Under the pieces are notes generated by a model. It ran no database searches. It had not been told where the DNA came from and saw only the letters and a list, made by a program, of their open reading frames with translations. The translations under genes and the position numbers were made by a program. From the NCBI GenBank assembly GCA_963791045.1, contig CAWBQK010000011.1, positions 288,001 through 352,000 on the forward strand: a DNA stretch of 64,000 bases, written 5' to 3'. Position 1 is the stretch's first letter. Each line of letters starts with the position of its first letter. Shown piece by piece: positions 28,840 through 58,291 of this stretch. This DNA is from Candidatus Latescibacterota bacterium. Its GTDB lineage: Bacteria; Krumholzibacteriota; Krumholzibacteriia; WVZY01.

Positions 28840-30156
28840 ATGTCGACAAACAAAGGCGGATCTTCTGGCAGTAAAAACAAAGCATTTAATTCGTTTGAGA
28901 TGGCACAAGCTCAATTTGACACTGTTGCTGAAATTTTGACTCTGGATACCGCGACGCGGCATCTGCTTCGACAGCCGCTTCGTGAATTCTCGTTCGCAAT
29001 ACCGGTGAGAATGGACGATGGGAGTGTCGAGGTGTTTCGCGGATTCCGCGTTCAGCACAATGACGCGAGGGGTCCGGGAAAAGGCGGGATCCGATTTCAC
29101 CCGCAGGAGACACTGGACACTGTTCGAGCGCTCGCCATGTGGATGACCTGGAAGTGTGCCGTGGTCGACATCCCTCTTGGTGGTGCCAAGGGAGGGGTTA
29201 TCTGCGATCCCCACAACCTCAGCGCTCGTGAACAGGAACGGCTGTGCCGCGGTTGGGTTCGGCAGATCGCCCGGAACGTTGGTCCGACGACCGATGTACC
29301 GGCACCCGACGTGATGACGTCCGCACAGCATATGCTGTGGATGCTGGATGAGTTCGAAACGATCCATGGGAGCAAGCTTCCGGGGTTTATCACTGGAAAA
29401 CCTGTTGGCATGGGCGGGTCATTGGGTCGAACGGAGGCCACCGGATTTGGCGTTGTGTTCACGATCCGTGAAGCACTCAAGGAACTCGGAATCCGGGCTT
29501 CCGACACAACAGCGAGTGTCCAAGGATTTGGCAACGTAGCGCAGTACGCGATCGAGTTGTACCTTCAGCTTGGTGGAAGGGTGTGTTGTGTATCGTCCTG
29601 GGATCAGGAAGAGCAGACGTCGTACGCCTTCAGAAAAAGCGACGGATTAGATCTCGACGAACTTCGCGGCATAACAAATCGCTTCGGTGGGATCGACAAG
29701 GAAAAAGCGCGCGACCTGGGTTACGATGTGCTTCCAGGTGATGATTGGATTTCTCAGGATGTGGATATATTGTTGCCGGCGGCGTTGGAAAATCAGATCA
29801 ACGGCGAGAGCAGTCTCCGGATCAGCAAAAAAGTCAAAATCGTGGCAGAAGGAGCCAACGGCCCCACGTCTCCCGAGGCAGATGCGGTGCTCAAGGAACG
29901 GGGGATTTACGTCATCCCCGATTTCCTTGCAAACGCCGGCGGAGTGACCTGCAGCTACTTCGAACAGGTTCAAAGCAACATGAACTATTTCTGGGAGCGG
30001 GACGACGTGCTTGGCCGACTCGACATCAAAATGACATCGGCATTCGTCGCGGTGAGTGAACTTGCCAGGAAGAAGAAGCTCTCCATGCGTGAAGCAGGGT
30101 ACGCGATCGCTATCGACCGTGTTGCCAAGGCCTGCAGAGATCGAGGATGGGTGTAG
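28840..30156 (+). CDS. Glutamate dehydrogenase (Glu/Leu/Phe/Val family), catalytic motifs intact
   Basis: RGPGKGGIRF, MTWK, GGAKGG, DVPAPD, EATGFG, QGFGNV, EGANGP, NAGGVTCSYFE. Confidence 0.93.
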   Translation: MSTNKGGSSGSKNKAFNSFEMAQAQFDTVAEILTLDTATRHLLRQPLREFSFAIPVRMDDGSVEVFRGFRVQHNDARGPGKGGIRFHPQETLDTVRALAMWMTWKCAVVDIPLGGAKGGVICDPHNLSAREQERLCRGWVRQIARNVGPTTDVPAPDVMTSAQHMLWMLDEFETIHGSKLPGFITGKPVGMGGSLGRTEATGFGVVFTIREALKELGIRASDTTASVQGFGNVAQYAIELYLQLGGRVCCVSSWDQEEQTSYAFRKSDGLDLDELRGITNRFGGIDKEKARDLGYDVLPGDDWISQDVDILLPAALENQINGESSLRISKKVKIVAEGANGPTSPEADAVLKERGIYVIPDFLANAGGVTCSYFEQVQSNMNYFWERDDVLGRLDIKMTSAFVAVSELARKKKLSMREAGYAIAIDRVAKACRDRGWV

Positions 30157-30223
30157 CGACCATCGTACGCGGCCGGGGAGCGTATTAGCCGTGTAATTTC
30201 TTCCGGAAGTGATGATAACTGCC

Positions 30224-31969
30224 ATGGCTGTTTTTGGAAAAAAAGATCTTCCTCCTTTCTCAAGGGCTTTTTGGGAGTCGGATGAACCGTTCAGCCGGAT
30301 TGGCGATGGTGAACTTGGAGGCAAGGCCCATGGTCTGGTTTTTATAAGGGACATTGTCGAAGCGGAGCTCAAGAATGGGCGGTATCGTGACATCGTTTTG
30401 AACATTCCCAAGTCCGTTGTGTTGACGACGAGTGTTTTCGACGCTTTTATGGATCGAAACGACTTGTTCGACATGGCCTTATCGGATGCGCCGGATGACA
30501 GAATTGCCCTCGCGTTTCAGGAGGGAAGCCTCCCGGTGGAAGTTGTCGGTGACTTGAGGGCGTTGGTCCAGGGAATCCACCAGCCGCTGGCCGTCAGGTC
30601 ATCGAGCTTGTTGGAAGACGCGCTCTTTCGCCCGTTTGCCGGTGTTTATGGAACCAAAATGATTCCGAATAATCAGCCTGATCCTGCGGTTCGTTTCAAA
30701 AAGCTGGTTGAGGCCATCAAATTTGTTTACGCCTCGGTGTACTCGAAATCGGCAAAAAGTTATATCGGCACAACCGACACCGATATTCAACATGAGAAAA
30801 TGGCTGTGCTCATCCAGGAAGTCGTGGGCGTACACCGGAACGAACGTTTTTATCCGCATATTTCCGGCGTGGCGAAGTCCTTTAATTTCTATCGGTCTGG
30901 GCCCGCCAAACCATCTGAAGGTGTCGTTAGCCTTGCGCTGGGGCTTGGGAAAACGATAGTCGATGGGGGACTAGCCTGGTCCTATTCTCCGGCACATCCC
31001 AAGGCTCCGCCGCCGTTTGCATCGGCAACCGACATGTTAAAGCAGACCCAAGCGAAGTTCTGGGCGGTTGGAATGGGCAAACCACCGGCGTTCGATCCAA
31101 TTAATGAGGCCGAGTATCTAACAGCGTCGGATTTGGCAACTGCGGAATACGACGACACGCTTCGGTATGTTGCGTCGACCTACGACGCCCGATCGGACCG
31201 TATAGTCCCCGGTACCGGGCCCGACGGTCCACGGGTAATCAATTTCAGCCCGATTCTCGTTCATAAGCAGCTTCCGCTCAATGAGCTTTTGAAAGAGCTC
31301 CTTCACGTTTGTGAGAATGCCGTGGGGGCCAAGGTCGAAATCGAGTTTGCCGTGACGTTACCGGACAGCCGGTCATCGACGGCGCGTTTTGGTTTTCTCC
31401 AGATCAGACCGATGGTTGTCTCGGATGAAGTCGTCGAGTTGGATGACGATGCCTTCGACTCGCCGGATATCCTCGTCGCGTCGGATCGTGTCATGGGTAA
31501 TGGGGTCGATTCGACGATTCACGATATCGTTTATGTCAAACCGGATGAGTTCGACGCGAAGTTTACACGTCAGATTGCCGGGCAGCTGGACGTCGCTAAC
31601 AAGAAACTGATTTCCGAAGCGTGTCCCTATCTTTTGATTGGATTCGGCCGATGGGGCAGCGTCGATCCGTGGCTCGGAATCCCGGTGGAATGGGGACAGA
31701 TCTTCGGCGCAAAAGTCATCGTGGAGGCGACGCTCCCGAAGATGAATGTCGACCCGAGTCAGGGAGCCCACTTTTTTCACAACCTATCGAGCTTCAAGGT
31801 CAGTTATTTTTCGATACATCACGGGCGATCTCCCGGTATTGATTGGGAGTGGCTGGAAAGCCGGCAGACCATCAGCGAAACCGAGTTTATCCGGCATGTA
31901 CGGTTGGGTTCTCCCTTGCAAGTCAGGGTGGACGGCCGAACGGGCCGGGGTGTCATTCGGCATGCGTGA
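30224..31969 (+). CDS. PPDK/PEP-synthase N-terminal (ATP-grasp) domain protein, short form 1
   Basis: GGKAHGL, PLAVRSSSLLED, FAGVY, MAVLIQEVVG, EIEFA, LQIRP; C-terminal GRWGS..PWLGIP and SQGAHFF. No PEP-binding barrel. Confidence 0.85.
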   Translation: MAVFGKKDLPPFSRAFWESDEPFSRIGDGELGGKAHGLVFIRDIVEAELKNGRYRDIVLNIPKSVVLTTSVFDAFMDRNDLFDMALSDAPDDRIALAFQEGSLPVEVVGDLRALVQGIHQPLAVRSSSLLEDALFRPFAGVYGTKMIPNNQPDPAVRFKKLVEAIKFVYASVYSKSAKSYIGTTDTDIQHEKMAVLIQEVVGVHRNERFYPHISGVAKSFNFYRSGPAKPSEGVVSLALGLGKTIVDGGLAWSYSPAHPKAPPPFASATDMLKQTQAKFWAVGMGKPPAFDPINEAEYLTASDLATAEYDDTLRYVASTYDARSDRIVPGTGPDGPRVINFSPILVHKQLPLNELLKELLHVCENAVGAKVEIEFAVTLPDSRSSTARFGFLQIRPMVVSDEVVELDDDAFDSPDILVASDRVMGNGVDSTIHDIVYVKPDEFDAKFTRQIAGQLDVANKKLISEACPYLLIGFGRWGSVDPWLGIPVEWGQIFGAKVIVEATLPKMNVDPSQGAHFFHNLSSFKVSYFSIHHGRSPGIDWEWLESRQTISETEFIRHVRLGSPLQVRVDGRTGRGVIRHA

Positions 31970-32007
31970 CCGGTCTGCACTTAAATGCAACGCCAAAGGC
32001 GGAGGGC

Positions 32008-35000
32008 ATGGCCAAACAAGAAAAATCACGTAAACATATTCTGGCGGCGCTTCGGGAGCGTGCCAAGGAACTCAACTGTCTCTACGCGGTCGATGAGATA
32101 CTCAGTGAGCCGGATCAGGATATAGAAAATGTTATTCGTGCGATAGCGGAGGCACTCCCTGCGGGATGGCAGTACCCGGAGATTTGCCGTACCCGGGTGG
32201 CGCTGCTCGACAGGGTTTATCAAACAGAAGATTTTGTGGAAACCGAGTGGAGACAATCGGCCGGAATTACAGCTCAAGGTGACGGCGTTGGCAAGGTCGA
32301 AGTTTTCTATACGGATGAAAAGCCTAAGCTCGACGAAGGTCCTTTCTTGAAGGAAGAACGACGGCTCGTCGATGCCGTGGCGGAGCGAATCGGACTCTTT
32401 GTTGTACAAAAGCGGCTGCGATCGGCCCATAAGAGCTGGGAAGACGCCGTCGAACAGATTTCAGACAAGTCGCACAACGACTGGATCGTCATTCTGGATT
32501 TTCTCCGGCGGACCGATCAAAAACTTCTCATCCGCGTCACTCGAAAAATGATCAACCACCTTTGCTGGACTGGTGTGGATGATGCGGAGGATCTGCTTCA
32601 AGAGTTTCTGTCGGAAGGTGAAGAAAGCCGGCCAACCGATGAGAACAAGCCTCTTCAGCGGTCGCGCCTCCGGAACCTTTCTGAATTGACCGACAAAACA
32701 TTCAAAATTGCAACCGGTCATTACAGCGATGGTGAAATCCTTGCGTTTCTCCAGAAGTGGATTGAGGAGGACAAGACATCCGTGCTTATCGATACGCTCG
32801 AGAATGCGGACAGTGATCTGGCACAGATATCGGACGCCGTCGCAAAATTCGAGACCACCGGTGTCAAAGAGCCCGAACTTTCCGTCGCGGTTCAGAAAAC
32901 ACTCCGCGTGTCGCTTCTTCAGAGGCTCTTTACCGACCACATGGCATTTATCGACGTCGCAAAAAACTTCGTCGAGGTTCAGGATTTTTATGAAATTCTA
33001 CGGCACGTGATATATCCGTCCCAAAGTCACGGAAAACTCGGTGGAAAGACCGCCGGCATGTTTCTCGCCTCACAGGTTGTAAAAAAGTCGACTGAGCACT
33101 CCGAACTCTTTGCAAACCTCAAAACGCCCAAATCGTGGTTCCTCAGCTCGGACTGTCTTCGACTGTTTATGCATTTCAATAACCTCGAGGATGTTTACGA
33201 CCGTAAGTACATTGAAATTGAACGTATCCGCCAGGGCTATCAACATATCGTTCAGGTGTTCAAGAACTCACTGTTTCCACCAGAAATTGTCAAAGGTCTT
33301 GCGTCGGCACTCGATGATTTCGAAGACCGCCCACTGATCGTCAGGAGTTCAAGCCTTCTTGAGGACCGTACGGGTTCGGCGTTCTCAGGAAAATACAAGA
33401 GTCTTTTCCTTGCCAATCAGGGTACTAAAAAAGCTCGTCTTGAGGCACTTCAGGATGCAATAGCCGAAGTTTACGCATCGGTTTTCGGGCCGGACCCGAT
33501 CGAGTACAGGGCCGAAATGGGATTGCTCGATGTTCATGAAGAGATGGGGATTTTGATCCAGGAGGTTGTTGGGTCCAGAGTGGGGAAATATTTTTTCCCC
33601 GCATTTGCCGGTGTCGCATACAACAACAATGAGTTTCGCTGGTCGGCACGAATCAAGCGTGAGGACGGTCTCGTCAGGATGGTGCCCGGTCTGGGGTCCC
33701 GCGCCGTTGACCGGTTAAGCGACGATTACCCCGTGCTCTTGGCTCCGGGGCAACCGGGGTTGCGGGTCAATGTCACATCAGACGAGGTAATCCGGTACTC
33801 ACCAAATAAGATGGACGTGATCAATCTCGAGGCAAACGCGTTCGAGACGGTGGAAGTCGAAAAGCTGGTCGCAGAATGCGGTGACGATTACCCGATGGCG
33901 AAGCAGATCGTTTCCATAATAGAAGGCGATAGGGTTCGGCGGCCGGTGGGGCTCGAACCGGAGTGGGGCAAAGACGACATTGCGGTGACATTTCAGGGTC
34001 TCTTTGCCGACACAAATTTTGTGTTACAGATCCGTACGCTGATGGATCTGCTTTTGGAAAAATTCAACGCTCCGGTTGATATAGAATTCGCTCACGACGG
34101 CAAGGATTTCTATCTACTTCAGTGTCGTGCGCAGAGCCATACAGAAAAGTACGGCCCGGCTTCGATTCCCCGTAATTTGCCCGAGGATAAAGTCGTTTTT
34201 TCAGCCAACCGCTACATTTCGAACGGATACGTACCGGACATTTCGCACATCGTCTACGTCGATCCCGAGAGCTACTGCGACATCGATGATTTTCAGGTGC
34301 TCAAGGAGATCGGACGGGTGGTTGGAAAGCTCAATAAATTGTTGCCAAAACGCCAGTTTATCTTGCTGGGGCCGGGACGATGGGGCAGCCGGGGGGATAT
34401 CAAGCTTGGTGTGGATGTGACTTACTCAGACATCAATAACACGGCCGTTCTGCTCGAGATCGCGAGGCAGAAGGGCAAGTACCTTCCGGAGCTTTCTTTT
34501 GGAACCCATTTTTTTCAAGATCTCGTCGAAGCGGATATCCGATACATCCCGTTGTATCCCGATGAGCCAGATGTAGTTTTCAACGAACCGTTCCTTAAAC
34601 GGTCAAGAAACATCCTTCCCGATATTGCTCCGGAGTTCTCTCATCTTGCCGATACCGTCCGGGTCATCGATGTTCCCCAACAGACCAACGGTCAGGTTCT
34701 CCGCGTGTTGTTGAATGCTGATCTCGACGAAGCCGTGGGGATTCTTGATCTGCCGGATAAGGGGGACAAAATCGAATTTTTCGAGACTTTCAGAGTCGAT
34801 GCAACACCCGAGGAACACTGGCGATGGCGCTGCCGGATGGCTGAAAAGATTGCTGCAAACCTCGATCCCGAACGTTTCGCCGTAAAAGCCTTTTATGTAT
34901 TTGGAAGCACAAAAAATGCGACCGCCGGCCCAGGGAGCGATCTCGATATCATAATCCATTTGGACGCGAATAGCCGTCAGAGGGCGGACCTATCTTTGTG

Positions 35001-35202
35001 GCTTGATGGGTGGAGTCGTTCGCTCGCTGAAGTCAACCATCTCCGAACTGGTTACGAGATGGAAGGACTTCTCGATATTCACTATGTAACGGACGAAGAT
35101 ATTAAGAATAAATCGAGTTTTGCGGCAAAAATAGACGCCGTCACGGATGCCGCGCGTCCGCTCGTCCTGGGAAGTCGTTCGCGGAAGGACCAATGCAGGT
35201 GA
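32008..35202 (+). CDS. Sensor domain + PPDK-like ATP-grasp + nucleotidyltransferase protein, long form 1
   Basis: N-terminal ERAKELNCLY..GWQYPEIC..GPFL.EE; GKLGGK, VRSSSLLED, SFGTHFF; C-terminal FGST..GPGSDLD (Pol-beta/MNT fold). ATG follows a GGAGG RBS. Confidence 0.85.
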   Translation: MAKQEKSRKHILAALRERAKELNCLYAVDEILSEPDQDIENVIRAIAEALPAGWQYPEICRTRVALLDRVYQTEDFVETEWRQSAGITAQGDGVGKVEVFYTDEKPKLDEGPFLKEERRLVDAVAERIGLFVVQKRLRSAHKSWEDAVEQISDKSHNDWIVILDFLRRTDQKLLIRVTRKMINHLCWTGVDDAEDLLQEFLSEGEESRPTDENKPLQRSRLRNLSELTDKTFKIATGHYSDGEILAFLQKWIEEDKTSVLIDTLENADSDLAQISDAVAKFETTGVKEPELSVAVQKTLRVSLLQRLFTDHMAFIDVAKNFVEVQDFYEILRHVIYPSQSHGKLGGKTAGMFLASQVVKKSTEHSELFANLKTPKSWFLSSDCLRLFMHFNNLEDVYDRKYIEIERIRQGYQHIVQVFKNSLFPPEIVKGLASALDDFEDRPLIVRSSSLLEDRTGSAFSGKYKSLFLANQGTKKARLEALQDAIAEVYASVFGPDPIEYRAEMGLLDVHEEMGILIQEVVGSRVGKYFFPAFAGVAYNNNEFRWSARIKREDGLVRMVPGLGSRAVDRLSDDYPVLLAPGQPGLRVNVTSDEVIRYSPNKMDVINLEANAFETVEVEKLVAECGDDYPMAKQIVSIIEGDRVRRPVGLEPEWGKDDIAVTFQGLFADTNFVLQIRTLMDLLLEKFNAPVDIEFAHDGKDFYLLQCRAQSHTEKYGPASIPRNLPEDKVVFSANRYISNGYVPDISHIVYVDPESYCDIDDFQVLKEIGRVVGKLNKLLPKRQFILLGPGRWGSRGDIKLGVDVTYSDINNTAVLLEIARQKGKYLPELSFGTHFFQDLVEADIRYIPLYPDEPDVVFNEPFLKRSRNILPDIAPEFSHLADTVRVIDVPQQTNGQVLRVLLNADLDEAVGILDLPDKGDKIEFFETFRVDATPEEHWRWRCRMAEKIAANLDPERFAVKAFYVFGSTKNATAGPGSDLDIIIHLDANSRQRADLSLWLDGWSRSLAEVNHLRTGYEMEGLLDIHYVTDEDIKNKSSFAAKIDAVTDAARPLVLGSRSRKDQCR

Positions 35203-35233
35203 GGCTCACCGGTTGATGTCCTCTCAACGTGTA

Positions 35234-36094
35234 TTACAATATTTCCCGTGTTGCTTTATCCAATTCTCCAGGGTCGAAACTCACAAGCGATAGCTCGGGG
35301 CCATCGTGGGCGGCCGTGAACATGTGGGTTCGGCCGATAGTGTCTCTCCACGACCCCGTTATCCGTGCTGACTCGTGTATGTGTCCGTGAAGGGTGAGTA
35401 GTGGCCGGCGGGCTTCTATAAAACGCCGTACGGCGATGCTCCCGACATGAAGGTCGAAAGGAACGCTGTCGATCATTTTGCCGTCGAGTCCCACACGATC
35501 AAGCGCCGTCTCGTGCGGCGGTGTGTGGAAGAGCATTATCGCATTGACCAACGGTGAATCGCCGGCGAGTTCCTTGAGGTCTTTTTGGATGGTGGCGTGT
35601 CTGATGATATGGGCGGGCAGGCCGTCCGAGCGACTGCCTTCTTCGGGTGACACGGATCCGGGGGGGGTGTAGCGCGACACGTCATATCTCTCCCAGTCCT
35701 TGATCATGAACGGTGTGGGCGGAACATACGCGTAACCAAACACCTGGAAACTCCCGAAAGAGATGCGCTTTCCATGCGCATAACGCCACAATCCCTCCTC
35801 TTCGAGTCTTCGACAGGTGTCCTCTTCGGTTTTCCCGTCATCGTTGCCGAGAATGACAAACACGTCGGGGTATAGATCGCCCATTTTGGCGCGGGCGTCA
35901 CGAAGTCGCGTTGCGAGGTACCCGCCGACAAAGTCGTCCAACTCCGGATCTCCTGTGGGGTTCGAGGCGAAAGCGTGGGGCAATATATCCCCTCCGATGA
36001 ACACACCATTGGGTTCGCGGTTGACGATGGCGTCGAATAACTTGTCGAAACGGTCCACTCGTCCATGAAGATCCGAAACAAACAGGCATTTCAT
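35234..36094 (-). CDS. Calcineurin-like metallophosphoesterase
   Basis: SDLHG, GGDI, LGNDD, FHTPP, HGHIHE. Confidence 0.88.
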   Translation of the reverse strand: MKCLFVSDLHGRVDRFDKLFDAIVNREPNGVFIGGDILPHAFASNPTGDPELDDFVGGYLATRLRDARAKMGDLYPDVFVILGNDDGKTEEDTCRRLEEEGLWRYAHGKRISFGSFQVFGYAYVPPTPFMIKDWERYDVSRYTPPGSVSPEEGSRSDGLPAHIIRHATIQKDLKELAGDSPLVNAIMLFHTPPHETALDRVGLDGKMIDSVPFDLHVGSIAVRRFIEARRPLLTLHGHIHESARITGSWRDTIGRTHMFTAAHDGPELSLVSFDPGELDKATREIL

Positions 36095-36327
36095 TGATTG
36101 TGTCCTCGGCAGATCGGTTTGAGATCATTGGCCCCATCGGAGCGCTCTGATGATAGCTCTTTCAGCGGCGGCGCTCAACGCCCTTGAGAAAGTGTTGGAT
36201 CTAGGGGGGCCGTGCCGGGTTCGTCCCCAAGGGGCCTTTTCATTATGAAATAGTTACCGAGCGTGTCCGTCGGACGATCACGCCGTAACCATCTGGGGAA
36301 TAGTCCGTTATCCTGTTGTCTGGCCGG

Positions 36328-36342
36328 TGGCACGGCTGTTGC
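36328..36342 (+). promoter_or_regulatory. Sigma54 promoter of the acyl-CoA ligase/GNAT gene
   Basis: Consensus TGGCACG-GCTG-TTGC, with a UAS-like TTTTCATTATGAAAT at 36237-36251. Confidence 0.85.
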
Positions 36343-36464
36343 GATGTCCCCTGTAAACCAGAGCCAAAACTTTTTGCGGCCCGTCCGTGCGAGTGCCGGG
36401 GCAGAGGTGTTGAAGAGTGGCTGGGAATGTCGGGCGGGCCGCAATTGCCTAAATGGAGGAAGTT

Positions 36465-39143: not shown

Positions 39144-39195
39144 CGCGGTTTGGCGGCGATCTGGCCGCGGTTGGATGGATCCTCAAACACGACCG

Positions 39196-39248
39196 GACAC
39201 GGGTGGGATGTTCTCCTGGATGACGGAGGCTCTCGCCCGTGTCTTTTT
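39196..39248 (+). terminator. Probable intrinsic terminator
   Basis: GACACGGGTGGGA / TCTCGCCCGTGTC stem (13 bp including two G-U pairs), an inner CTCC/GGAG stem, then TTTTT. Confidence 0.5.
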
Positions 39249-39329
39249 GTGCTCTTCGGTCAAACCAAAATGAATTGAACGCCTTCTGCGAGTCAACTAT
39301 ATTCTCATGAACAACAATGGAGGAAGCGA

Positions 39330-41677: not shown

Positions 41678-41709
41678 GATGTGAATGATCTGATAGGAAC
41701 CTGTTGCGT

Positions 41710-45218: not shown

Positions 45219-45416
45219 ATGGTTCGCGATCCCTCTGGAATGCGGAAGGACGATGAGGGGCAACCCGAAAGCAACCGTACGCATCATGAAGAACACGCGA
45301 AAGACCGAAAGGTTTACAAGGGTTTGTGTGCGAGCTGCGCACACCGTGAAACCTGTCTTTTGCCCGAGGCCGAGGGTGGGGTGTGGCACTGTGAACAATA
45401 TGTTGAAGAGTGTTGA
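45219..45416 (+). CDS. Small Cys-rich protein
   Basis: YKGLCASCAHRETC..GGVWHCEQY; first ORF of the operon. Start uncertain. Confidence 0.55.
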   Translation: MVRDPSGMRKDDEGQPESNRTHHEEHAKDRKVYKGLCASCAHRETCLLPEAEGGVWHCEQYVEEC

Positions 45417-45464: not shown

Positions 45465-46316
45465 ATGAAACCAAATGACTCAGCCGCCGCCGTTGATAAA
45501 GCTGTAGGAGAAGAAGAGGGTCTCATAGCCCGAATGGAACGTATCCAGGCAACGTATGGCTATCTCCCGCAAGAGAAGCTGGAAAAACTCGCCGAAGAAA
45601 CAGGCCGCTCCCTCGTGGATATCTATGGAGTAGCCACTTTTTATAAGGCATTCAGTTTGAAACCGAGGGGAAAACATCTCGTTTCCGTTTGTCTGGGTAC
45701 GGCCTGTCACGTTCAAGGCGGTCCAAGGATCGCGGAGGCTTTCCAAAAAGAACTGGGAATTCAATCGGGGGAGACCACAACCGACCGCGAGTTCTCTCTG
45801 GAGACCGTCAACTGTCTGGGTGCGTGTGCTCTGGGCCCCGTCGTCGTGGTGGATGGCCATTACTTTTCCAAAGTTCGAACGACCGAGGTCAAGGGGATCA
45901 TTGAACAAACCCGTAAGGGGCTGGATCTCGTGGAAATCGAAACGGATGAACGTGTTTTCCCGGTTGAGGTGAGCTGCTCGCGCTGCAATCACAGCCTCAT
46001 GGATCCACGGCATGTCATCGACAGTCACCCGTCCATTCGCGTAACTGTTTCTTTTGGTGACAAGCACGGTTGGTTGGCTCTTTCGGGCCTGTATGGAAGC
46101 TACCGAGTGGCGTCAGAGTATGAGATACCGATCGACGAGGTCGTGCATATGTTCTGTCCCCACTGTCATGCGGAGTTCATTGGCAGCAGCCGCTGCAGCG
46201 ACTGCGCGGCACCGATGGTTCCCATGATTGTACGTGGCGGAGGGGTCGTCCAGATCTGTGCCCGCCGCGGCTGCCGGGGTCACATGCTGGATCCGGGTGG
46301 CGTGCCTCTGGAATAG
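45465..46316 (+). CDS. NuoE/HydC-like [2Fe-2S] subunit with an extra C-terminal Cys-rich domain
   Basis: GYLP, GVATFY, VCLGTACH, VNCLGACALGP; extension CSRC..CPHC..CSDC..ICARRGCRGH. Confidence 0.88.
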   Translation: MKPNDSAAAVDKAVGEEEGLIARMERIQATYGYLPQEKLEKLAEETGRSLVDIYGVATFYKAFSLKPRGKHLVSVCLGTACHVQGGPRIAEAFQKELGIQSGETTTDREFSLETVNCLGACALGPVVVVDGHYFSKVRTTEVKGIIEQTRKGLDLVEIETDERVFPVEVSCSRCNHSLMDPRHVIDSHPSIRVTVSFGDKHGWLALSGLYGSYRVASEYEIPIDEVVHMFCPHCHAEFIGSSRCSDCAAPMVPMIVRGGGVVQICARRGCRGHMLDPGGVPLE

Positions 46317-46357
46317 ACATTTTGTTCGTTTGAACACTCATAGAGAGAGGTGTAGCG

Positions 46358-49300
46358 GTGAACAGGGTATCAAGCGTCTTGGAGTTTTCCGGGCTTCGTG
46401 AGCGCATTCAAGATGACAAAAAGATCCAGTATGAAAAACCTACCCTGGTTGTGTGCGCCGGTACGGGAGGGCAGGCCAGCGGGTCGAACGACGTCTTGCG
46501 GATAATCAAGCGATACATCCTCGACCGGAGTCTCCAGACAAAGATCGGGCTGAGGGTAACGGGGTGTCAGGGTTTTTGTGAAATGGACCCGTTTATCGTC
46601 GTGGAGCCCGGACGGCATCTATATCCGAAGCTCAAAATGGAGGATGTCCCGCACGTGATCGACGCCGCGGTTGGTGGATTTGTTGATGAAAGTCTGATCT
46701 ACAGAGACCCGCATGAGAAAAAGCAGTACCACAACCAGGACGACATTCCCTTCTTCAAAAAGCAAAAACGTTTGATTCTGGGGGACAACCAGAAGCTCGA
46801 TCCCATCCGGATCTTCAACTACATCGAATTGGGTGGGTATGCGGCGACGGAAAAAGTGTTATCGAACCTCGATCCGGAATGGATCGTCGAAGAAGTAAAA
46901 AAATCAGGATTGCGGGGGCGTGGTGGAGCCGGTTTTCCGACGGGGAAGAAATGGGAGCTTGCCCGGGCTTCCGGAAGACCGGATGAACAAAAATACATCG
47001 TCTGTAATGCCGACGAAGGAGACCCCGGAGCCTACATGGACCGCAGCCTATTGGAAGGCAATCCCCACGCAATCATCGAAGGGCTGCTGATCGGTGGGAT
47101 CGCGATCGGTGCCACCAGGGGTTGATTTATGTTCGCAGCGAGTATCCGATCGCCATCAAACACAGCATCATAGCGCTTCGGCAGGCTCGTGACATGGGGA
47201 TTCTGGGAACAAACATTCTTGGGACTGGGGTTGATTTCGACATCAAGATAGTTCGCGGTGCGGGTGCATTCGTATGTGGGGAGGAGACGGCACTCATAAA
47301 ATCCGTCGAGGGATTTATCGGTGAACCGCGGCAGCGGCCGCCTTATCCGATCGAAAAAGGGATCGGGGGACATCCCACATGTATCAACAACGTCGAAACT
47401 CTCGCCAATATTCCCGTCATCATCGATCCGGAGTGGCGGGGATGCCTACGCGAGGATTGGCGTCCCTGGAAACACGGGCACAAAGATCTTCTCTCTTGTC
47501 GGTAAAATCCAGAACACGGGTCTGGTGGAGGTCCCGCTGGGAATCAAGATATCGGAAGTCGTTTATGACATTGGCGGCGGAGCCTCTGGAAAAGCCAAAA
47601 TCAAGGCCGTTCAAACCGGCGGACCGTCGGGAGGATGCATTCCCGCCCGAATGTTCGATCTACCCATCGACTATGACAGCCTGGTGAAGGCGGGTTCCAT
47701 CATGGGATCGGGCGGCATGATCGTCATGGACGAAGAAACATGCATGGTGGACGTCGCCAAATATTTCATGGGTTTTCTCAAGGATGAATCCTGCGGCAAG
47801 TGCTTCACGTGCCGTAAAGGCACACAGCGTATGTACGAGATCCTCGACGACATTTCAAAGGGCAAGGCGACCCTTGAGGATCTGGATTTACTCGAAGAGC
47901 CTGGCCTATGTCGTCAAGGATACGACGATGTGCGGTCTCGGCCAGTCCGCATCGAATCCCGTGATCAGCACGCTGCGCTATTTCCGGGAAGAGTACGAAA
48001 GGCACATCGTCGAAAAGCGTTGTGATGCCTACGTGTGCAAGGATCTGGTCGGTGCTCCGTGTCAGTCCGCGTGTCCGTTGGGAACCGAGGCGTGGCGATA
48101 CGTCGCCCATATCGGACACGGTGAATACGAGGAAGCCTATCGAGTGATCCGTGAGGCCAACCCCTTCCCGTCGGTCTGTGCTCGAGTCTGCGATCACCCG
48201 TGCGAGACGAAGTGCCGTGCCGGCGCCACGGGCGGCAGCTCGGTGGCCATACGGGCTTTGAAGCGTTTTGTCGCCGATCGTGTCGATCCTTCGGTTTTCA
48301 ACCCGGTGGCGGAGGATTGGTCGGAAGGGACTCCACCGAGGGTCGCCATTATTGGCGCAGGGCCCGCCGGGCTGAGTGCGGCGCACTATTTGTCCCTCAA
48401 AGGTTGCAAGGTCACGGTATTCGAAGCGGAAAAGGAACCCGGCGGCATGCTGACCTGTGCAATCCCTTCATATCGTCTGCCGCGTGAAGTGATCGAAAAA
48501 GAAATCGATGCGCTGCTCGATGGAAATATCACGCTCAAGTGCGATGTTGCTCTGGGCCGAGACATCGATATCGATGGGTTGTTCGAGGAGGGTTACCAGG
48601 CGGTTCTTCTCGCGATCGGCGCTCACAAAAGCAAGCCGCTCCAGCTCGAAAATGAAGATGTCGAGGGTGTCTATCCCTCGATCGAATTCCTGAAGGCTTT
48701 CAATCTTCAGAAGCAACAACTGGCAAAGGGCAATGTTGGTGTGATCGGCGGCGGTAACTCGGCCATCGATGCCGCCCGTATGGCGCTCCGTCTCAAGGAC
48801 GTCGATAAGGTCACAATCCTTTACCGGCGAACCCGAGAGTGAGATGCCGGCGTTCGCCGAGGAGATCGAAGCGGCGGACCAGGAAGGGATCCACATCGAT
48901 ACCCTTGTCTCGCCCGTCGGGATAGTTAGCTGAAAGCGGACGCCTGACAGGACTCGAATGCATCCGTAACGAGCTTGGTGATGCGGATGCCAGCGGCCGG
49001 CGCAGGCCGGTTCCGATTGCCGGCACTGAACACGAAATCGAACTCGATACGTTGATCGTTGCTATCGGGGAAGATACCGGCATCGACGCCATCACACCGG
49101 CGAAATCGAGCCAGCTCGAAATCACCTCGTGGAACACGGTTCGGGTCAACCCCACAACAATGCAAACCAATCGCCCCGGTGTTTTTGCCGCGGGGGATGT
49201 CGTCCGCGGACCCAACACGGTGGTCGAAGCAATCAGCGACGGCAAGAGAGCGGCTGTCATGATCGAGCGGTTTCTCAAAAAAGAACCTTTGCTCCAGCCG

Positions 49301-49549
49301 TTCCAACCAAACATTCCCCGGGTCTACGTCGAACCGGTTCTCGACGAAGCGGCGTTAGCCGTTGACCGGTCGGAGACGCCCCGCGCGGCGGCGGATTGGC
49401 GCAAACGCAACTTCGCAGAGGTGGAGGTGTCAATGTCTCAAACGGAAGCCGCGCGGGAGGCCCGGCGATGTTTGCGGTGCGATCTCGAGTTCACCGGCCA
49501 AAAGAAAGAAAAAGATAAAGAATCCAAAACGGGGAGGCAGAGCGCGTGA
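46358..49549 (+). CDS. NuoF/HydB-like subunit fused to a GltD-like FAD oxidoreductase; about five frameshifts (near 47120, 47430, 47900, 48840, 48928)
   Basis: Colinear motifs across ORFs 46358, 47122, 47321, 47784 and 49052: [78 protein letters not shown]. Confidence 0.85.
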
Positions 49550-50254
49550 TTACCGTCAGGATAAATGGATTGGATGTGTCGGTAGAGAAGGGAACGACGC
49601 TTCTGGAAGCCGCTCAGTTTTTGGGATTTCCGATTCCCACGCTGTGTCACATGGAGGGACTGTCGCCTTACGGAGCCTGTCGACTCTGTGTAGTTGAGAT
49701 CGGAGAGGGAGACAGAGCAAAACTCGTGACATCCTGCACCCATCCGGTTCAAGAGGGGCTGGTTGTCAGGACCGCATCATCGCGCGTGGTGAAGGCCCGC
49801 AAGATGATCATCGAGCTGCTGCTGGCATCGTGTCCGCAATCCAAGGTGATACAGGATCTGGCGGCAAAACACGATGTCCGACACGCAGCGGTTCAAACAA
49901 GAATACGAAGACTGCATTCTCTGCGGTTTGTGCGTGCGGATGTGTGAAGAACAAATGGTTGCAAAGGCAATCGGTTTTCAAGGCAGGGGGGATAATCGCA
50001 CCATCGGTACCCCTTTCAATATCAAGACGGAGGTTTGCCGCCAGTGCGGCGGCTGCATATACGTCTGTCCCGCTTGCTCGCTTCGTTGTACGTACAACGA
50101 ACCGGAAAAAGCGGTTTGCGGGGGGTGTGCGAATCTCGGCCCTCCGTGCCTGGAAAAGGATCAGTTCGACGACATGATGTGCTACATGGATCCCTGTGTG
50201 GCCTGCGAGATAGTAAAAGACGACAATAAGTTGTCCGAGAAAAAGAAAAGCTAG
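49546..50254 (+). CDS. NuoG/HydA N-terminal-like Fe-S protein ([2Fe-2S] + 2x[4Fe-4S]), frameshift near 49884
   Basis: IPTLCH, GACRLC, TSC; then CILCGLCVRMC, CRQCGGCIYVCP and a further Cys-rich tail. No H-cluster or molybdopterin domain. Confidence 0.82.
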
Positions 50255-50273
50255 CGAAAAGGAGCAGAACAAA

Positions 50274-51864: not shown

Positions 51865-51939
51865 GATGGCCGGGGAGTTTGTGACGGGCATATGGTGCGG
51901 GGACCTCGGCTATCCACCATCCGGGAACAGGTGGGTATT

Positions 51940-53694: not shown

Positions 53695-53710
53695 AAAAGA
53701 AACACAGTCG

Positions 53711-56700
53711 GTGATCAATCTTCTCGAATCCCTCACTGAGCGGGCCAAGGAGTTGACCTGTCTCTATGCCATTGAAGAGGCGTTGAAAGAACCGGATGCG
53801 GATATCGATCGGGTTTGTGAACGTATCATCGAAGCGATTCCGCCGGGATGGCAATACCCGGACATCTGTGTCGCCGAGATCATTTTGGAGGGCATACAGT
53901 GCTGCCGTTCTCCTAATTTTGAAGAAACTCCCTGGCATTTGAAAACAGACATCGTTCAACAGGATCATGTGGTTGGGTCCATCGGAGTATATTACACCAA
54001 AGAGATGCCGCCGGTCGATATCGGTCCCTTTCTTAACGACGAGCAAAAGCTTATCGAGTCTATCGCAGACCGACTGAATCATTTTGTAATTTACAAGAAA
54101 ATGCAGCACGTTCTGCAGGAATGGCGGAACGGAAAAGGGGCGTTGTCGGAGACGGGCCGCGCGGATTGGGAGGCGGTGTTAGACCTTGTTCGCCAGACAG
54201 ACCATGCGCTTTTTCTTCGAATCGCCAACAAAATGCTCAATCATCTGTGTTGGAGCGGTATCGAAGAGGCAGAGACTCTGCGGCCGATGGCCGACACCCA
54301 GAAAATCGCTGCCGGCAATCTGCAGGATGGTGACGTTGAGGGGCCGCGGTTGAGCCGGTTATTGGATTTCTCTGCCGAGTTTACCGAGAGGCTTTTCCGG
54401 ATCGCAGCAAATAATTTGAGCGGGGAAGAAATTCTTTCCCGTATTCAAATGTGGATACAGGAAGACAAGATTGGTGCATTGCACCGGACCGTGCGCCGCC
54501 GTCTCCCTCTCTCCGAGGTTTCCAGCAGGTTGCGGCACTACTTTTTTACGACCCGGGACGAATCGTACGATCGTTATCCCGTCGCCAGAGGTTTAAAGGT
54601 TCTCCTTATCGAGTCGGTTCTGTCAGACCGGCTGGAATATATTGATGCGGCGAAGGATCATGTCGATATCGATGACCTCTACCATCTTCTCCAGAAGGTA
54701 ATATTCTCCGCGGATAGCCACGGAAAGCTCGGGGGAAAGAGTGCCGGGCTCATTTTGGCGTCACAGATTTTGAAGAAAACAAACGGTGGAGGAAATCCGG
54801 CGTTCCGCTTTCCCAAGACGTGGTATATCTCTTCGGACATGATGCTCGAGTCTATTCACTACAACAACATGGATGAGGTTATCGAGCAGAAATACAAAGA
54901 CATCGAAAGAGTCCGGCTCGAATATCCACACGTGATCGAAATGTTCCAGAAAACAGTTCTGCCCCCCGAAATGGTCAATGGTTTGTCCGCGGCTCTCGAC
55001 GATCTCGGAGAAAACCCCATCGTTGTACGCAGTTCATCGCTTCTTGAGGACCGTACGGGAGCGCCATTTGTTGGGTTGTACAAAAGCGTGTTTCTGGGAA
55101 ACCAGGGGCCGCGGGAGGAACGTCTCCGCCGTTTGATATCAGCGGTGACCGAGGTTTACGCGTCGAATTTTGGCCCGGATCCGATCGAGTTTCGAGCGGC
55201 CCGCGATCTGTTGGAATTGAGCGAGCAGATGGGCATCATGATCCAGCAAGTTGTAGGGGAGCGAGTCGGGCCGTATTTTTTGCCCGTGTATTCGGGGGTG
55301 GCAAGCAGCCGGATGGGGTTTCGATGGCTTCCCGATGTTGCGGAAGACAGCGGTATTGTACGCATCATGCCTGGACTTGGGACTGGAGCCTTGCGTCGAA
55401 ATCGCGAGGAACACCCCGTACTCGTTATTCCCGGGCACCCGTCGGCCGCGGTCTACGGATCTTCGGAAGAACGTATTTGTGAGGCGCCATCAAAAATCGA
55501 TGTGATCAATCTCGAGACCAACAGTATCGAAACGATCAAGATCAGCGAATTGATGACGCAATATGGAAGTGAGTTTCCGCTCGTGGAACAGATCATGTCC
55601 GAGTACAAGGACGGCGAGCTATTGCCTGTATCACCGGCTGAAAATCCGTTTAGCCTCGAAAACCAGAGACTGGTGGTCACATTCGATGGACTGCTCACAC
55701 GCAGCCCGTTTGTAGCCCAGATCCGAACTCTTCTTCGAACACTCGAGGAAGAACTCGGATCGCCCGTTGAGGTCGAGTTCGCATCGGATGGCAAGCACCT
55801 GCACATTCTACAATGCCGCACCCAAACCCCGGCGGGGATGCCCCGGCCGGCTCCTATACCCAAGGAACTGACCAGAAACCAGCTCGTCTTCTCGACGAGA
55901 CGATTTGTGTCGAACGGGCGGGCATCTAATATCACACACACCGTCTATGTGGATCCGGAGTCTTACGCCAGTATCGAAGACCCGGCGGACCGCGGCGCCA
56001 TAACACGAATTGTTTCGAGACTAAACGAATTGCTTCCCAAGAGACAGTTTGCGCTCATCTGGCCCGATCGGTTTGCCACCCATCGAGATGAGGGCGGAGC
56101 CAGTATATGTCATCGTGATTTCGATAACGCCGCCGCCCTGATTGAATTGTCCGAGCCCGAAGAAGAGAACAGCGGAAAAGCGCCCGTCGGTTTGCATGTC
56201 CTCCACGATCTCGCGGAGTCCGGAGTTCTTTATCTTCCGTTGACACCGGGTGACGAAGGGACAACGTTCAACGAACGCTTCCTCAGGCGTTCCCGCAATG
56301 TCTTCCCAGAGCTTTTTCCCGAGTATGCTCACCTTGCCGATGTGGTTCATGTGGTCGATGTTCCGAAGGTGACGGACGGAAAAGTCTTGCAGGTGTTGAT
56401 GAACGCTGAACTTGGCGAAGCCGTTGGATTGCTTTCGGATCCTGGAGAAAAGATGGGATACCCCGAGGAAAGGGAGCCCGTCGAAGATGGACGCCCCGAA
56501 GATTACTGGCGTTGGCGTCACCGCATGGCCGAACAGATTGCCGGGCAGTTGGATCCGGTACGCTTCGGGGTCGAACGTATTTATCTTTTTGGCAGCACGA
56601 AGAACGGTACCGCAGGCCCGGGAAGCGATATCGACATTCTGGTTCACTTTAAGGGTACGAAATCCCAGAGAGAATTGCTCGTCCAGTGGTTGGAGGGTTG

Positions 56701-56884
56701 GAGTCTTTGCCTCGATGAAATCAACTACCTTCGGACGGGATACCGAGCAGGCGGCTTGCTCGACTTTCACATCATCACCGATAAAGATATCGCAAAGAAG
56801 ACAAGCTATGCCGTCAAAATCAACGCCGTCACTGATGCGGCGCGTCCGTTGAATATGAAAGAAACCAGCGATGATGCACGGTAG
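53711..56884 (+). CDS. Sensor domain + PPDK-like ATP-grasp + nucleotidyltransferase protein, long form 2 (partly degenerate)
   Basis: Colinear paralog of 32008: [41 protein letters not shown]. Confidence 0.85.
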   Translation: MINLLESLTERAKELTCLYAIEEALKEPDADIDRVCERIIEAIPPGWQYPDICVAEIILEGIQCCRSPNFEETPWHLKTDIVQQDHVVGSIGVYYTKEMPPVDIGPFLNDEQKLIESIADRLNHFVIYKKMQHVLQEWRNGKGALSETGRADWEAVLDLVRQTDHALFLRIANKMLNHLCWSGIEEAETLRPMADTQKIAAGNLQDGDVEGPRLSRLLDFSAEFTERLFRIAANNLSGEEILSRIQMWIQEDKIGALHRTVRRRLPLSEVSSRLRHYFFTTRDESYDRYPVARGLKVLLIESVLSDRLEYIDAAKDHVDIDDLYHLLQKVIFSADSHGKLGGKSAGLILASQILKKTNGGGNPAFRFPKTWYISSDMMLESIHYNNMDEVIEQKYKDIERVRLEYPHVIEMFQKTVLPPEMVNGLSAALDDLGENPIVVRSSSLLEDRTGAPFVGLYKSVFLGNQGPREERLRRLISAVTEVYASNFGPDPIEFRAARDLLELSEQMGIMIQQVVGERVGPYFLPVYSGVASSRMGFRWLPDVAEDSGIVRIMPGLGTGALRRNREEHPVLVIPGHPSAAVYGSSEERICEAPSKIDVINLETNSIETIKISELMTQYGSEFPLVEQIMSEYKDGELLPVSPAENPFSLENQRLVVTFDGLLTRSPFVAQIRTLLRTLEEELGSPVEVEFASDGKHLHILQCRTQTPAGMPRPAPIPKELTRNQLVFSTRRFVSNGRASNITHTVYVDPESYASIEDPADRGAITRIVSRLNELLPKRQFALIWPDRFATHRDEGGASICHRDFDNAAALIELSEPEEENSGKAPVGLHVLHDLAESGVLYLPLTPGDEGTTFNERFLRRSRNVFPELFPEYAHLADVVHVVDVPKVTDGKVLQVLMNAELGEAVGLLSDPGEKMGYPEEREPVEDGRPEDYWRWRHRMAEQIAGQLDPVRFGVERIYLFGSTKNGTAGPGSDIDILVHFKGTKSQRELLVQWLEGWSLCLDEINYLRTGYRAGGLLDFHIITDKDIAKKTSYAVKINAVTDAARPLNMKETSDDAR

Positions 56885-56926
56885 TTATTTTAACAACAAG
56901 CACGAACCACAGAGGGGAGCCAATAA

Positions 56927-58291
56927 ATGGCCTCGTATGTTCAAAAGCTGATGGCCGAGGTTCGATCGAAAAACCCCGCCGAACTCGAATTTCACGAGGT
57001 CGTCCAGGATCTTGCCGAGTCTCTGATCCCTGTCCTGGAGCGCAACCCCCACTACGCCGAAGCCAGGATTCTCGAACGGATAATTGAACCTGAACGGACA
57101 CTGGGGTTTCGCGTTTCCTGGGTGGACGACGCGGGCCGCATCCAGATCAACCGCGGTTACCGTGTTGAAATGAACGGTTCGATTGGGCCCTACAAAGGTG
57201 GCCTTCGATTTCATCCCTCGGTCAACCAGAGCATCTTCAAGTCCCTCGCTTTGGAGCAAGTGTTCAAGAACAGTCTCACCACGTTACCGTTGGGTGCAGG
57301 AAAGGGTGGGTCTGATTTCGATCCTAAAGGAAAGAGCGATCATGAGGTCATGCGTTTTTGCCAGGCCTTCATGAACGAGCTGTATCGTCACATCGGCCCG
57401 AACACCGATATTCCGGATGGTGACATTGGTGTTGGCGGCCGTGAAATCGGGTACCTGTTCGGCCAATACCGCAAGCTCAAGAACGAGTTTACGGGTGTGT
57501 TGACCGGAAAAGGGCTCGGTTGGGGAGGCTCGGTGATGCGGCCGGAAGCGCCGGGTTACGGTGTCGCCTATCTCGCCGAAGAGATGCTTGCCACAAAAGG
57601 CGAAGCCCTCGAAGGCAAGACGTGCCTGGTTTCAGGGAGCGGGAAAGTAGCACAGTTTGTCATGGAAAAGCTAATCGATCTTGGCGCGAAGGTTGTTACG
57701 TTCTCGGATTCAAGCGGTTGTGTATACGATTCGGATGGTGTCGACCGCGAGAAACTGGAATGGCTCAAGGAACTCAAGAACGTACGCAGGGGCCGCACGA
57801 TGGATTATGCAAAGGAATATCCGAGCGCCGAGTACCTGTCGGCGGATGCGGGTGATCTCGACGAAAATGCTATTTGGACCCGAAAAGGGGATTGTGCCTT
57901 TCCCTGTGCCACACAGAACGAGATTAGTCGTAAAGATGCCGAGAATCTTCTTCAAAACGGAATCCAACTGGTTTGCGAAGGGGCTAGCATGCCCACGACG
58001 CCTGAAGGGATAAAGCTTTTTATCGATCGGCGCGTTCTTTACGCCCCGGGAAAAGCGGCGAACGCGGGTGGTGTGGCGGTATCGGGTCTGGAAATGGCGC
58101 AGAACAGTGCTCGCTACCCCTGGACTCGTGACGAGGTGGATACGCGGCTCCGATTGATCATGAAAGGAATCCACGATGCCTGTTTGACGGCTGCCGTGGA
58201 GTATGGCACGCCGGGCAATTATGTGAACGGCGCAAACATCGCCGGGTTTATCAAGGTGGCTGATGCCATGCTCGACCAGGGAGTGGTCTGA
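56927..58291 (+). CDS. gdhA: GdhA-type (NADP-specific clade) glutamate dehydrogenase with altered motifs
   Basis: GPYKGGLRFHPSV, EQVFKN, GKGGSDFDPKGKS, PCATQNE, KAANAGGVAVSGLEM, GANIAGF. Confidence 0.88.
   Translation: MASYVQKLMAEVRSKNPAELEFHEVVQDLAESLIPVLERNPHYAEARILERIIEPERTLGFRVSWVDDAGRIQINRGYRVEMNGSIGPYKGGLRFHPSVNQSIFKSLALEQVFKNSLTTLPLGAGKGGSDFDPKGKSDHEVMRFCQAFMNELYRHIGPNTDIPDGDIGVGGREIGYLFGQYRKLKNEFTGVLTGKGLGWGGSVMRPEAPGYGVAYLAEEMLATKGEALEGKTCLVSGSGKVAQFVMEKLIDLGAKVVTFSDSSGCVYDSDGVDREKLEWLKELKNVRRGRTMDYAKEYPSAEYLSADAGDLDENAIWTRKGDCAFPCATQNEISRKDAENLLQNGIQLVCEGASMPTTPEGIKLFIDRRVLYAPGKAANAGGVAVSGLEMAQNSARYPWTRDEVDTRLRLIMKGIHDACLTAAVEYGTPGNYVNGANIAGFIKVADAMLDQGVV

Follow-up and report, generated by a model that had tools for sequence, protein, structure and literature searches.

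Why should the gene for a glutamate dehydrogenase (GDH) be accompanied, twice in one genome, by a pair of genes resembling an incomplete phosphoenolpyruvate (PEP) synthase, and what could their products do to the enzyme encoded beside them? The question is raised by a stretch of 64,000 nucleotides (the window) of Candidatus Latescibacterota bacterium (assembly GCA_963791045.1, contig CAWBQK010000011.1, positions 288,001 to 352,000), in which gdh, a short and a long dikinase-like gene occur together in two modules. GDH is the main carbon-nitrogen junction in many anaerobes, and this gene set suggests that the enzyme is sensed or switched in a manner not yet described. The cassette is real, widespread and, as far as we searched, undescribed. 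It probably encodes a regulatory complex on GDH, in which a GDH-docking regulatory dikinase would be combined with a pair of enzymes writing and erasing a nucleoside monophosphate (NMP).

Gene content of the two modules

An earlier note on this DNA had described the same three-part module as occurring twice. All six open reading frames (ORFs) are indeed present where it placed them, three in each module, but the two sets are only 31-55% identical (shorts 55%, longs 44%, GDHs 31%), their order differs (gdh1-short1-long1 against short2-long2-gdh2) and NCBIfam assigns gdh1 to GDH family II and gdh2 to family I. Judged from these sequences, the modules are old paralogues and no tandem copy. Module 1 has the features of an intact cassette. 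It comprises gdh1 (28840..30156, + strand), an active-looking hexameric family-II GDH with an intact active site (K81, K105, K117, A155, D157, N232) and the predicted docking partner of long1; short1 (30224..31969, +), an ATP-grasp (PPDK_N) protein with a predicted swivel-fold domain carrying His516, lacking both sensor and acceptor domains; and long1 (32008..35202, +), with a GAF domain, a helical domain, an ATP-grasp similar to that of rifampin phosphotransferase (RPH), a His domain and a nucleotidyltransferase (NTase) of the Pol-beta/MNT type. The note had missed a fourth cassette gene, convergent to these (35234..36094, - strand), for a calcineurin-like metallophosphoesterase (motifs DxH, GD, GNDD and GHxH), a candidate eraser for the NTase. 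Module 2 consists of short2 (51940, or 51892, to 53694, +), dikinase-like with an intact ATP site and His motif (SQGSHFFHN), long2 (53711..56884, +) and gdh2 (56927..58291, +). It was not upheld as an equal copy, since catalytic positions conserved elsewhere are altered in long2 and gdh2; it appears instead as a specialised, conserved and half-decayed variant behind a glutamate-synthase-like flavoprotein operon. A third family member, of the receiver (REC)/DUF5752 type found in Bacteroidota, lies elsewhere in the same genome (contig C12, 59633-62059, - strand), with its start cut by the contig end.

Domains and folds of the dikinase-like proteins

Pfam finds PPDK_N alone in the four dikinase-like proteins, to which the two longs add a C-terminal NTP_transf_2/Polbeta domain; the PEP/pyruvate barrel (PEP-utilizers_C, PF02896) is absent from all four, as the note had held, and PF00391 gives no match in them. 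NCBIfam models of PEP synthase, RPH and PigC score no higher than 56 bits, far from their cut-offs of 501-1700 (at least 598 for PEP synthase), and span just part of the ATP domain. In the genome itself (81% complete) the only PF02896 matches are one full pyruvate phosphate dikinase (PPDK) and one phosphotransferase-system (PTS) enzyme I, and no free-standing pyruvate barrel was found there.

The structural model of long1 (pLDDT 91.8) places a GAF domain at about residues 10-146, the helical domain at 155-335, the ATP-grasp at 340-715, the conserved His at 834 and the NTase at 934-1055. The His domain follows the ATP-grasp directly, with no acceptor domain between them, and no RIF-binding-type acceptor domain is found in cis or encoded among the window neighbours. 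Both the N-terminal sensor and the C-terminal NTase claimed for the long forms were thus recovered, the former as a GAF fold (structure match to VIA, Z 12.6, root-mean-square deviation (rmsd) 2.3, 123 residues aligned) that recurs, at 41% identity, in the histidine kinase at 41704. The ATP-grasp is nearest to RPH (Z 19.7, rmsd 2.9, 295 residues aligned; Foldseek E 7e-15), with HpeI as another fold match (Z 13.4), and the K/R/E/Q/R residues of the PPDK_N ATP site are present. In PDB sequence searches long1 and short1 matched just RPH domains, and these weakly (E 0.07-0.6); no close solved relative of long1 was found. The family, commonly named 'pyruvate,water dikinase' in databases, is mostly mislabelled, and its nearest solved relative is RPH. 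Conservation is high in the longs (K347 in 137/138, R446 in 145/145, E693 in 142/147, R707 in 140/146 and H834 in 123/131) and in the shorts, where K, Q and E are invariant, R125 is kept in 119 of 120 and H516 in 117 of 118 aligned short/REC-type sequences.

The conserved C-terminal His of the note was found in all four translations (GAHFF, GTHFF, GSHFF and GLHVL, one per protein), together with GS-x10-DxD in the longs, and the model places it in a swivel-fold domain. In the short1 model of this domain (pLDDT 92.7) the His starts a helix after a strand and a loop, as the His of PPDK does. The top structural matches are tied, namely a DRTGG protein (Z 6.8), the PPDK phosphocarrier domain (6.5), RPH (6.4), the C-terminal domain of pyruvate kinase (6.2) and maize PPDK (6.1), followed by enzyme I and other swivel-fold proteins. 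The model favours a diverged swivel fold carrying the conserved His; the comparison with the PPDK swivel domain suggested by the note had a mixed outcome, PPDK and RPH being among the tied matches at scores that we weigh below.

A large family encoded beside gdh

Among 7,999 scored candidates 7,991 are homologues, so that the family has at least 7,991 clusters at 90% identity, with 1,077 representatives at E<=1e-30 (50% clustering). In the GTDB survey (79 loci from the best 80 of 572 confirmed, among which close relatives dominate) gdh adjoins the family in 60 loci, from about 20 phyla by record titles, and GDH is present in 50 of the 61 loci of at least 12 kb. In a sample of the phylum Bacteroidota the family occurs in 22 of 101 genomes, with GDH within 1.5 kb in 22 of 30 loci. 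Homologues are therefore strongly enriched beside gdh, as the note had expected, and GDHs of both families (I and II) occur in the cassettes.

The short/long heteromer proposed in the note was supported in part. Among the best 120 homologues of the longs, nine have short and long fused in one protein, which argues that the two act together, but long-only loci (L056, L070 and L075) and loci with only a REC-type protein adjoin gdh too, and the heteromer is therefore not obligatory. Across the surveyed loci the cassette has no conserved downstream acceptor gene, and no PII, glutamine synthetase or HEPN genes were seen in it. Some variants depart further from the window. One locus (L106, G001:C130) has three tandem GAF-type domains ahead of a REC-type dikinase. 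Another (L069:4679-7773) encodes a much diverged REC-type pair (24% identical to short1) without a Pfam match, located between a flavoprotein operon and a lysine-less gdh1; its record is titled Eubacteriales, yet by phylum the genome groups with an Acidobacteria record.

The predicted GDH1-long1 complex

Complex prediction with GDH had been proposed as a check, and it gave a contact. GDH1 (residues 16-438) and long1 (338-914) were folded together and reached an interface score (ipSAE) of 0.63 against 0.00 for the best of three controls, with a partner pLDDT of 81 and at least 91% of contacts shared between runs. The ipSAE mark used is reached by 116 of 157 solved and by two of 215 mismatched pairs, a calibration only roughly valid here since our own alignments were used. 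Binding of long1 to GDH1 is thus suggested by the complex model. On the GDH1 side the interface comprises residues 59, 124-130, 156-163 and 188 of domain I and 256 and 280-282 of domain II; on the long1 side it comprises 545-548, 584-591, 595-600, 618, 638-644, 657 and F836, with the predicted docking loops 545-548, 584-591 and 638-644 in the ATP-grasp. F836 lies two residues from His834, and the His helix faces GDH.

Both sides of the interface are conserved. Among 80 canonical longs R548 is kept in 80, W545 in 79, S546 in 78 and L585 in 77. The docking residues of GDH1 are cassette-specific when judged against four outgroup GDHs, with H125 in 42, M159 in 43, Q163 in 40 and F282 in 41 of 43 active cassette GDHs. 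The predicted interface thus names residues that can be mutated, and the question of GDH docking becomes directly testable.

H125 of GDH1 aligns with E. coli K136. In Schizosaccharomyces pombe Gdh1, according to the available text of PMC12301742, Lys121 binds the 2'-phosphate of NADP and is used with Arg279 to mark the jaw tips, and in two other GDHs the jaws close by about 17-26 degrees on ligand binding. Judged by motif position, Lys121 and Arg279 would correspond to H125 and R281/F282 of GDH1. In the model long1 is thus predicted to clamp over both moving jaws of GDH, where the cofactor site has its adenosine end. The available part of a Pantoea GDH paper (PMC12364357) contains no passage on K128 or K136. 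Returning to the predicted arrangement as a whole, we know of no complex like it.

An optional nucleotidyltransferase and phosphoesterase layer

The NTase of the long proteins carries the Pol-beta/MNT signature hG[SG]x9-13DxD plus a third Asp, conserved at G966 (71/72), S967 (71/73), D978 (72/76), D980 (70/72) and D1023 (70/72). PF01909 scores above its Pfam cut-off and Atlas gives 0.98, and the match to the MntA model is weak (20-26 bits, cut-off 60). The phosphoesterase, whose motifs are conserved across 62 sequences and for which a PDB search gave nothing useful, is found in 39 of 52 NTase-bearing loci and in none of the 27 NTase-less ones; in the class of our genome it accompanies 27 of 30 NTase loci, our own included. 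It is absent from the long-only loci L056, L070 and L075, while in L029 gdh, short and phosphoesterase are kept and a stand-alone NTase of 125 amino acids (L029:2415-2792) replaces the whole long gene. These patterns of co-occurrence make NTase, phosphoesterase and short subunit look like a single optional layer, with counts that are non-independent because the loci include kin. Short frames resembling the free NTase of L029 were also seen in G187 and G150.

Module 2 and the degenerate GDHs

Homologues of gdh2 were aligned to E. coli GdhA and the 120 best were taken. A166 is changed in 73 of them (to Asp in 62), and the other 47 are canonical at K128 and A166. Within the altered 73, N242K is present in 67, while K128, which we take to be catalytic, is kept in only six, the gdh2 of the window among them. 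In E. coli numbering gdh2 has G126A, A166D, T211P, N242K and N348S and fails the residue set of active family-I NADP-GDHs (K92, K116, K128, A166, D168, T211, N242); in the D166 group K92 is retained in 62/62, K116 in 60/62 and D168 in 62/62. The 73 altered GDHs form one branch (local support 100, FastTree, 150 rows, an odd row of 653 amino acids left out), and among nine clade genes dN/dS is 0.03-0.10 in 29 of 36 pairs, the other seven being saturated. Taken at the level of sequence, gdh2 is a probable pseudoenzyme under purifying selection, in which the acidic residue (Asp or Glu) at the pocket-lining Ala166 position should hinder glutamate binding, and dozens of 'NADP-GDH' annotations in this clade are probably pseudoenzymes too. 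Loss is not confined to family I. Six of 72 family-II GDHs from the surveyed loci lack the catalytic Lys, for which a quick tree needs at least two changes; the position of A166 is Glu in three of them and that of T211 is Pro in three, changes that parallel those of gdh2. Lysine-less cassette GDHs keep H125, M159, Q163 and F282 in five, five, five and four of five cases, and since catalytically degenerate GDHs keep the docking residues, this suggests that GDH may also serve as sensor or scaffold, beyond being a mere substrate.

In the long2 clade the otherwise near-invariant motifs PGRWGSRGD and SFGTHFFQDL are lost in 7/7 sequences covering the region; the His itself is kept in six of these and the NTase motif in all seven. 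In three genomes, long1 orthologues share 69-82% identity across the His domain and 43-62% across the GAF; long2 orthologues from the same genomes share 48-58% across the His domain, 68-78% across the GAF and 80-82% across the NTase. In long2 the GAF and NTase are thus under tighter conservation, the His-domain motifs and predicted docking loops being degenerate. Short2 is intact, with a clade-specific change from GRWG to GRLG. A dead GDH always paired with a decayed long was considered and rejected; the longs beside lysine-less gdh1 in L035, L040, L064 and L069 keep their His motifs.

The gene order of module 2 (kinase, regulator, NuoE-, NuoF/GltD- and NuoG-N-like subunits, FMN protein, short2, long2, gdh2) is shared, completely or partially, by six related genomes and most of 14 metagenome loci, with the phosphoesterase present three times. 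A canonical family-I GDH exists elsewhere in four of five module-2 genomes checked; none was found in our own genome, where its expected place lies beyond the end of contig C12, as in relatives a canonical gdhA precedes the orthologue of the third family member. In the single-contig genome G115 module 2 is split inside long2 (C1, 1725963 and 4106908), by rearrangement or misassembly, and the other family-I GDH of that genome reads GGGTGG at the catalytic Lys.

How the cassette may work

We propose that the long protein docks, as modelled, by loops inserted in its ATP-grasp that reach over the tips of the two GDH domains, with its His helix turned toward GDH. These tips would show the largest movement as the cleft shuts around substrate and cofactor. 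Judging from fold and invariant residues, short and long would convert ATP to AMP, Pi and phospho-His, as RPH, PPDK and VadK do, with GDH in the place of the missing acceptor domain. The phosphorylation state could then be set by the open, closed or ligand-bound state of GDH and by the GAF ligand (a role that the receiver domain would take in the Bacteroidota form), and docking or phosphotransfer could in turn switch GDH activity. Co-inheritance suggests an optional writer and eraser, in which the NTase would attach NMP to one of the proteins of the complex, with the short subunit or GDH as the likeliest target, and the convergent phosphoesterase would take it off. Module 2 would be a derived state in which GDH no longer catalyses, the short dikinase is intact and the long protein retains only the function of a nucleotidyltransferase under GAF control; it probably serves the adjacent glutamate-synthase-like flavoenzyme or the active GdhA of the genome. 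A bolder form of the proposal is tentative and somewhat doubtful. In it, protein dikinases of a new class would use GDH in trans as their ligand-gated acceptor module: the long subunit would sense whether the GDH jaws are open or closed, a swivelling phospho-His would modify GDH or its bound cofactor, and NTase and phosphoesterase would gate the complex. In module 2 the circuit would have been redirected, by way of a dead GDH, to a glutamate synthase that is bifurcating and ammonia-dependent. GDH activity in Bacteroides reportedly depends on trans-acting genes downstream of gdhA, a dependence that the acceptor-module idea, if true, may explain; the REC-type family member would be a natural candidate for such a gene. 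If this bolder proposal holds, nitrogen metabolism would have, in about 20 phyla, a further circuit of covalent control, the third after GlnD/PII/GlnE and PknG/GarA.

Several points weigh against a regulatory complex on GDH. The Z-scores of the His domain to the PPDK and RPH His domains (6.1-6.5) are middling and under the tool threshold of 8, Foldseek of this domain gave no match at E<=0.001, and hhalign to a shallow set of 11 His-domain sequences, one row being in the wrong frame, gave no significant match. The complex model contains a single GDH subunit and a long1 trimmed of its GAF, helical and NTase domains, and the checks of interface conservation share their alignments with the model. 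The gdh2 of the window keeps K128. The docking loops of long2 are changed in 6/6 sequences, yet long2 adjoins a GDH; a contact of the GDH1-long1 type therefore cannot explain module 2. The survey is dominated by close relatives, 19 of its 79 loci have no GDH (several being short contigs), and among 62 chosen ORFs core-only members from Thermoplasmata and Thermotogae, and several members from Bacillota, lie amid unrelated genes. Two GDH-less loci adjoin 2-oxoacid:ferredoxin oxidoreductases; in L046 and L047 core-only Thermotogae members lie 3' of such genes, with no gdh there.

The alternative that survives best is a metabolic two-component dikinase, in which GDH would provide the substrate-binding subunit, taking the part that HpeH plays beside HpeI, and the phospho-His would phosphorylate a small molecule bound to GDH (glutamate, 2-oxoglutarate or NAD(H), the last at its adenosine-ribose end), the phosphoesterase removing the phosphate; ATP would thereby be coupled to the GDH reaction, or a new metabolite made. 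It draws on the nearest folds, RPH and HpeI, which are small-molecule dikinases, on the separate chains for acceptor and ATP domains in HpeHI (according to the available text of PMC12167813), on a predicted interface that extends over the cofactor cleft at its adenosine end and has F836, near His834, among its residues, and on the K92, K116 and D168 retained in the degenerate family-I clade. We consider it unlikely, since family members carry fused sensors (GAF/REC) and a fused nucleotidyltransferase, the phosphoesterase goes with the NTase domain and not with the dikinase, and the acidic residue at the Ala166 position of the degenerate GDHs should hinder glutamate binding.

GDHs without the catalytic Lys, which arose in both families inside the cassette and were kept by selection, speak for another possibility, that GDH is an input sensor only (a trigger enzyme) with unchanged activity, the phosphorelay having its output elsewhere, for example in a response regulator, PII or the glutamate-synthase-like complex. 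Docking by the ATP-grasp across the moving jaws and the shared GAF of the neighbouring histidine kinase would also fit. The missing conserved downstream acceptor gene, the absence of a dikinase gene within 1.5 kb of the flavoprotein operon in 31 Acidobacteriota-phylum loci, and a clamp over the cleft that would be expected to alter turnover make this quite improbable. That the genes are ordinary or split PEP synthase or PPDK genes, or remnants of them, beside gdh through shared amino-acid catabolism, has the database names and the PPDK_N match behind it and is hardly credible, being largely refuted by the lack of a barrel in the proteins (the PF02896 matches of the genome being the full PPDK and the PTS enzyme I), by the low NCBIfam scores and by invariant family-specific motifs and short+long fusions.

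Comparison with known systems

By membership tests on its sequences, the system of our proposal is not a PEP synthase, PPDK, RPH or GlnD/GlnE system. With PEP synthase and PPDK it shares a PPDK_N domain, followed by what is probably a swivel-fold His domain; unlike them it has no PEP/pyruvate TIM barrel, scores far under the family cut-offs and coexists with a PPDK of the genome. GlnD and GlnE control nitrogen enzymes by nucleotidylation, and MntA-type proteins are minimal nucleotidyltransferases. The long proteins resemble all three in the Pol-beta motif GS-x10-DxD with a third Asp and in the pairing of NTase and hydrolase, but differ from GlnD/GlnE in that the eraser is a separate calcineurin-like phosphoesterase, neither an HD nor a second NTase domain; Pfam and NCBIfam found no HD, ACT or tandem NTase architecture in them. 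With RPH (5hv1) and HpeHI (9goj; PMC12167813, as available) it shares the ATP-grasp fold (Z 19.7 and 13.4), the K, R, Q, E, Q and R residues of the ATP site and probably the swivel-fold His domain, whereas the family has no substrate-binding domain between ATP-grasp and His domain, is only 19-20% identical to them and, as compared with HpeHI, has no gene for a separate acceptor subunit other than gdh.

The closest precedent in logic is VadK (Rv1127c), a PPDK-derived regulatory His kinase described, in the available text of PMC13400623, as a truncated PPDK acting on the methylcitrate cycle, which autophosphorylates its His and is encoded beside, and binds, the metabolic enzymes that it tunes. 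Both have an ATP-grasp and a His domain without the pyruvate barrel. By description, our family is set apart by a strongly diverged swivel domain (GRWGS, SxG[STA]HFF), by the short/long pair or fusion, by GAF/REC sensors, NTase and phosphoesterase, and by GDH as partner. In Thermus thermophilus (GdhA/GdhB/APRTh, ADLP), the accessible part of bioRxiv 10.1101/2025.10.31.685773 presents an inactive dehydrogenase homologue as regulatory subunit or ligand sensor; a probably inactive homologue is likewise retained here, although the degenerate GDHs come from both families I and II and are tied to dikinase-like and NTase genes. By analogy, the system would work most like VadK, combined with a modification layer of the GlnD/GlnE kind and with pseudo-GDH subunits of the Thermus kind. 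We found no description of the family in the literature searched (which covered few subscription journals), and the available part of the Pelobacter genome paper (PMC3543383) does not mention it.

Flanking genes and promoters

Module 2 is headed, in conserved synteny, by a histidine kinase with the GAF of the long proteins and a sigma-54 response regulator (41704..44834, +). There follow BfuABC-like flavin and iron-sulfur subunits similar to NuoE, NuoF/GltD and the N-terminal part of NuoG (45465..50254, +) and a glutamate-synthase-like flavin mononucleotide (FMN) barrel protein without an amidotransferase domain (PF01645; 50362..51864, +), directly 5' of short2 in this lineage. Together (45465-51864) they are a candidate ammonia-dependent, electron-bifurcating glutamate synthase. 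Their FMN barrel is highly conserved (65-91%) and has no NCBIfam or PDB match, and we found no relevant literature linking BfuABC with glutamate synthase. The NuoF/GltD-like gene (46358-49549) is in five frames here and one open frame of about 1065 amino acids in relatives, and the breaks are probably assembly indel errors; read-derived contigs are short and of low depth, one having single-base gaps at 47415-47424, and are too weak to settle the frameshifts. Similar splits are seen in rnfC (21865-23200).

The flavoprotein operon occurs in 31 of 301 genomes of the phylum Acidobacteriota and in 16 of 201 of our own phylum. It was rejected as an obligate part of the cassette, as no dikinase gene lies within 1.5 kb in any of the 31 Acidobacteriota-phylum loci; in our own phylum short2 stands directly behind it in seven of 17 loci. 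Since the operon elsewhere is mostly without the cassette, the link is lineage-specific.

A scan of the window for sigma-70 promoters and terminators gave nothing decisive. Matches to the sigma-54 consensus number five, not above the chance mean of 3.5; four are intergenic, 5' of an operon and correctly oriented, at 26749 (-), 28646 (+), 36328 (+) and 45069 (+), the last ahead of the flavin/iron-sulfur operon. The one at 28646..28660 (+, one mismatch) is a candidate -24/-12 promoter for module 1 and lies shortly 3' of the gene for a V4R/XylR_N sigma-54 activator (26877-28511). This activator was rejected as a conserved cassette part, as it was not seen beside the cassette in the neighbourhoods of the 79 loci. 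It stands between module 1 and a divergent operon (16886-26699) with a peptidase M20, ApbE, a class III cytochrome c and a full Rnf set, whose RnfB is fused to a GltD-like flavin domain. Directly after the phosphoesterase lies a Pat/PatZ-type acetyl-CoA ligase-GNAT protein acetyltransferase (36453-39143), in the same order in G109, and ahead of nuoE there is a possible small Cys-rich ORF (45220-45414; CxxC...C...CxxY), under the ORF cut-off used.

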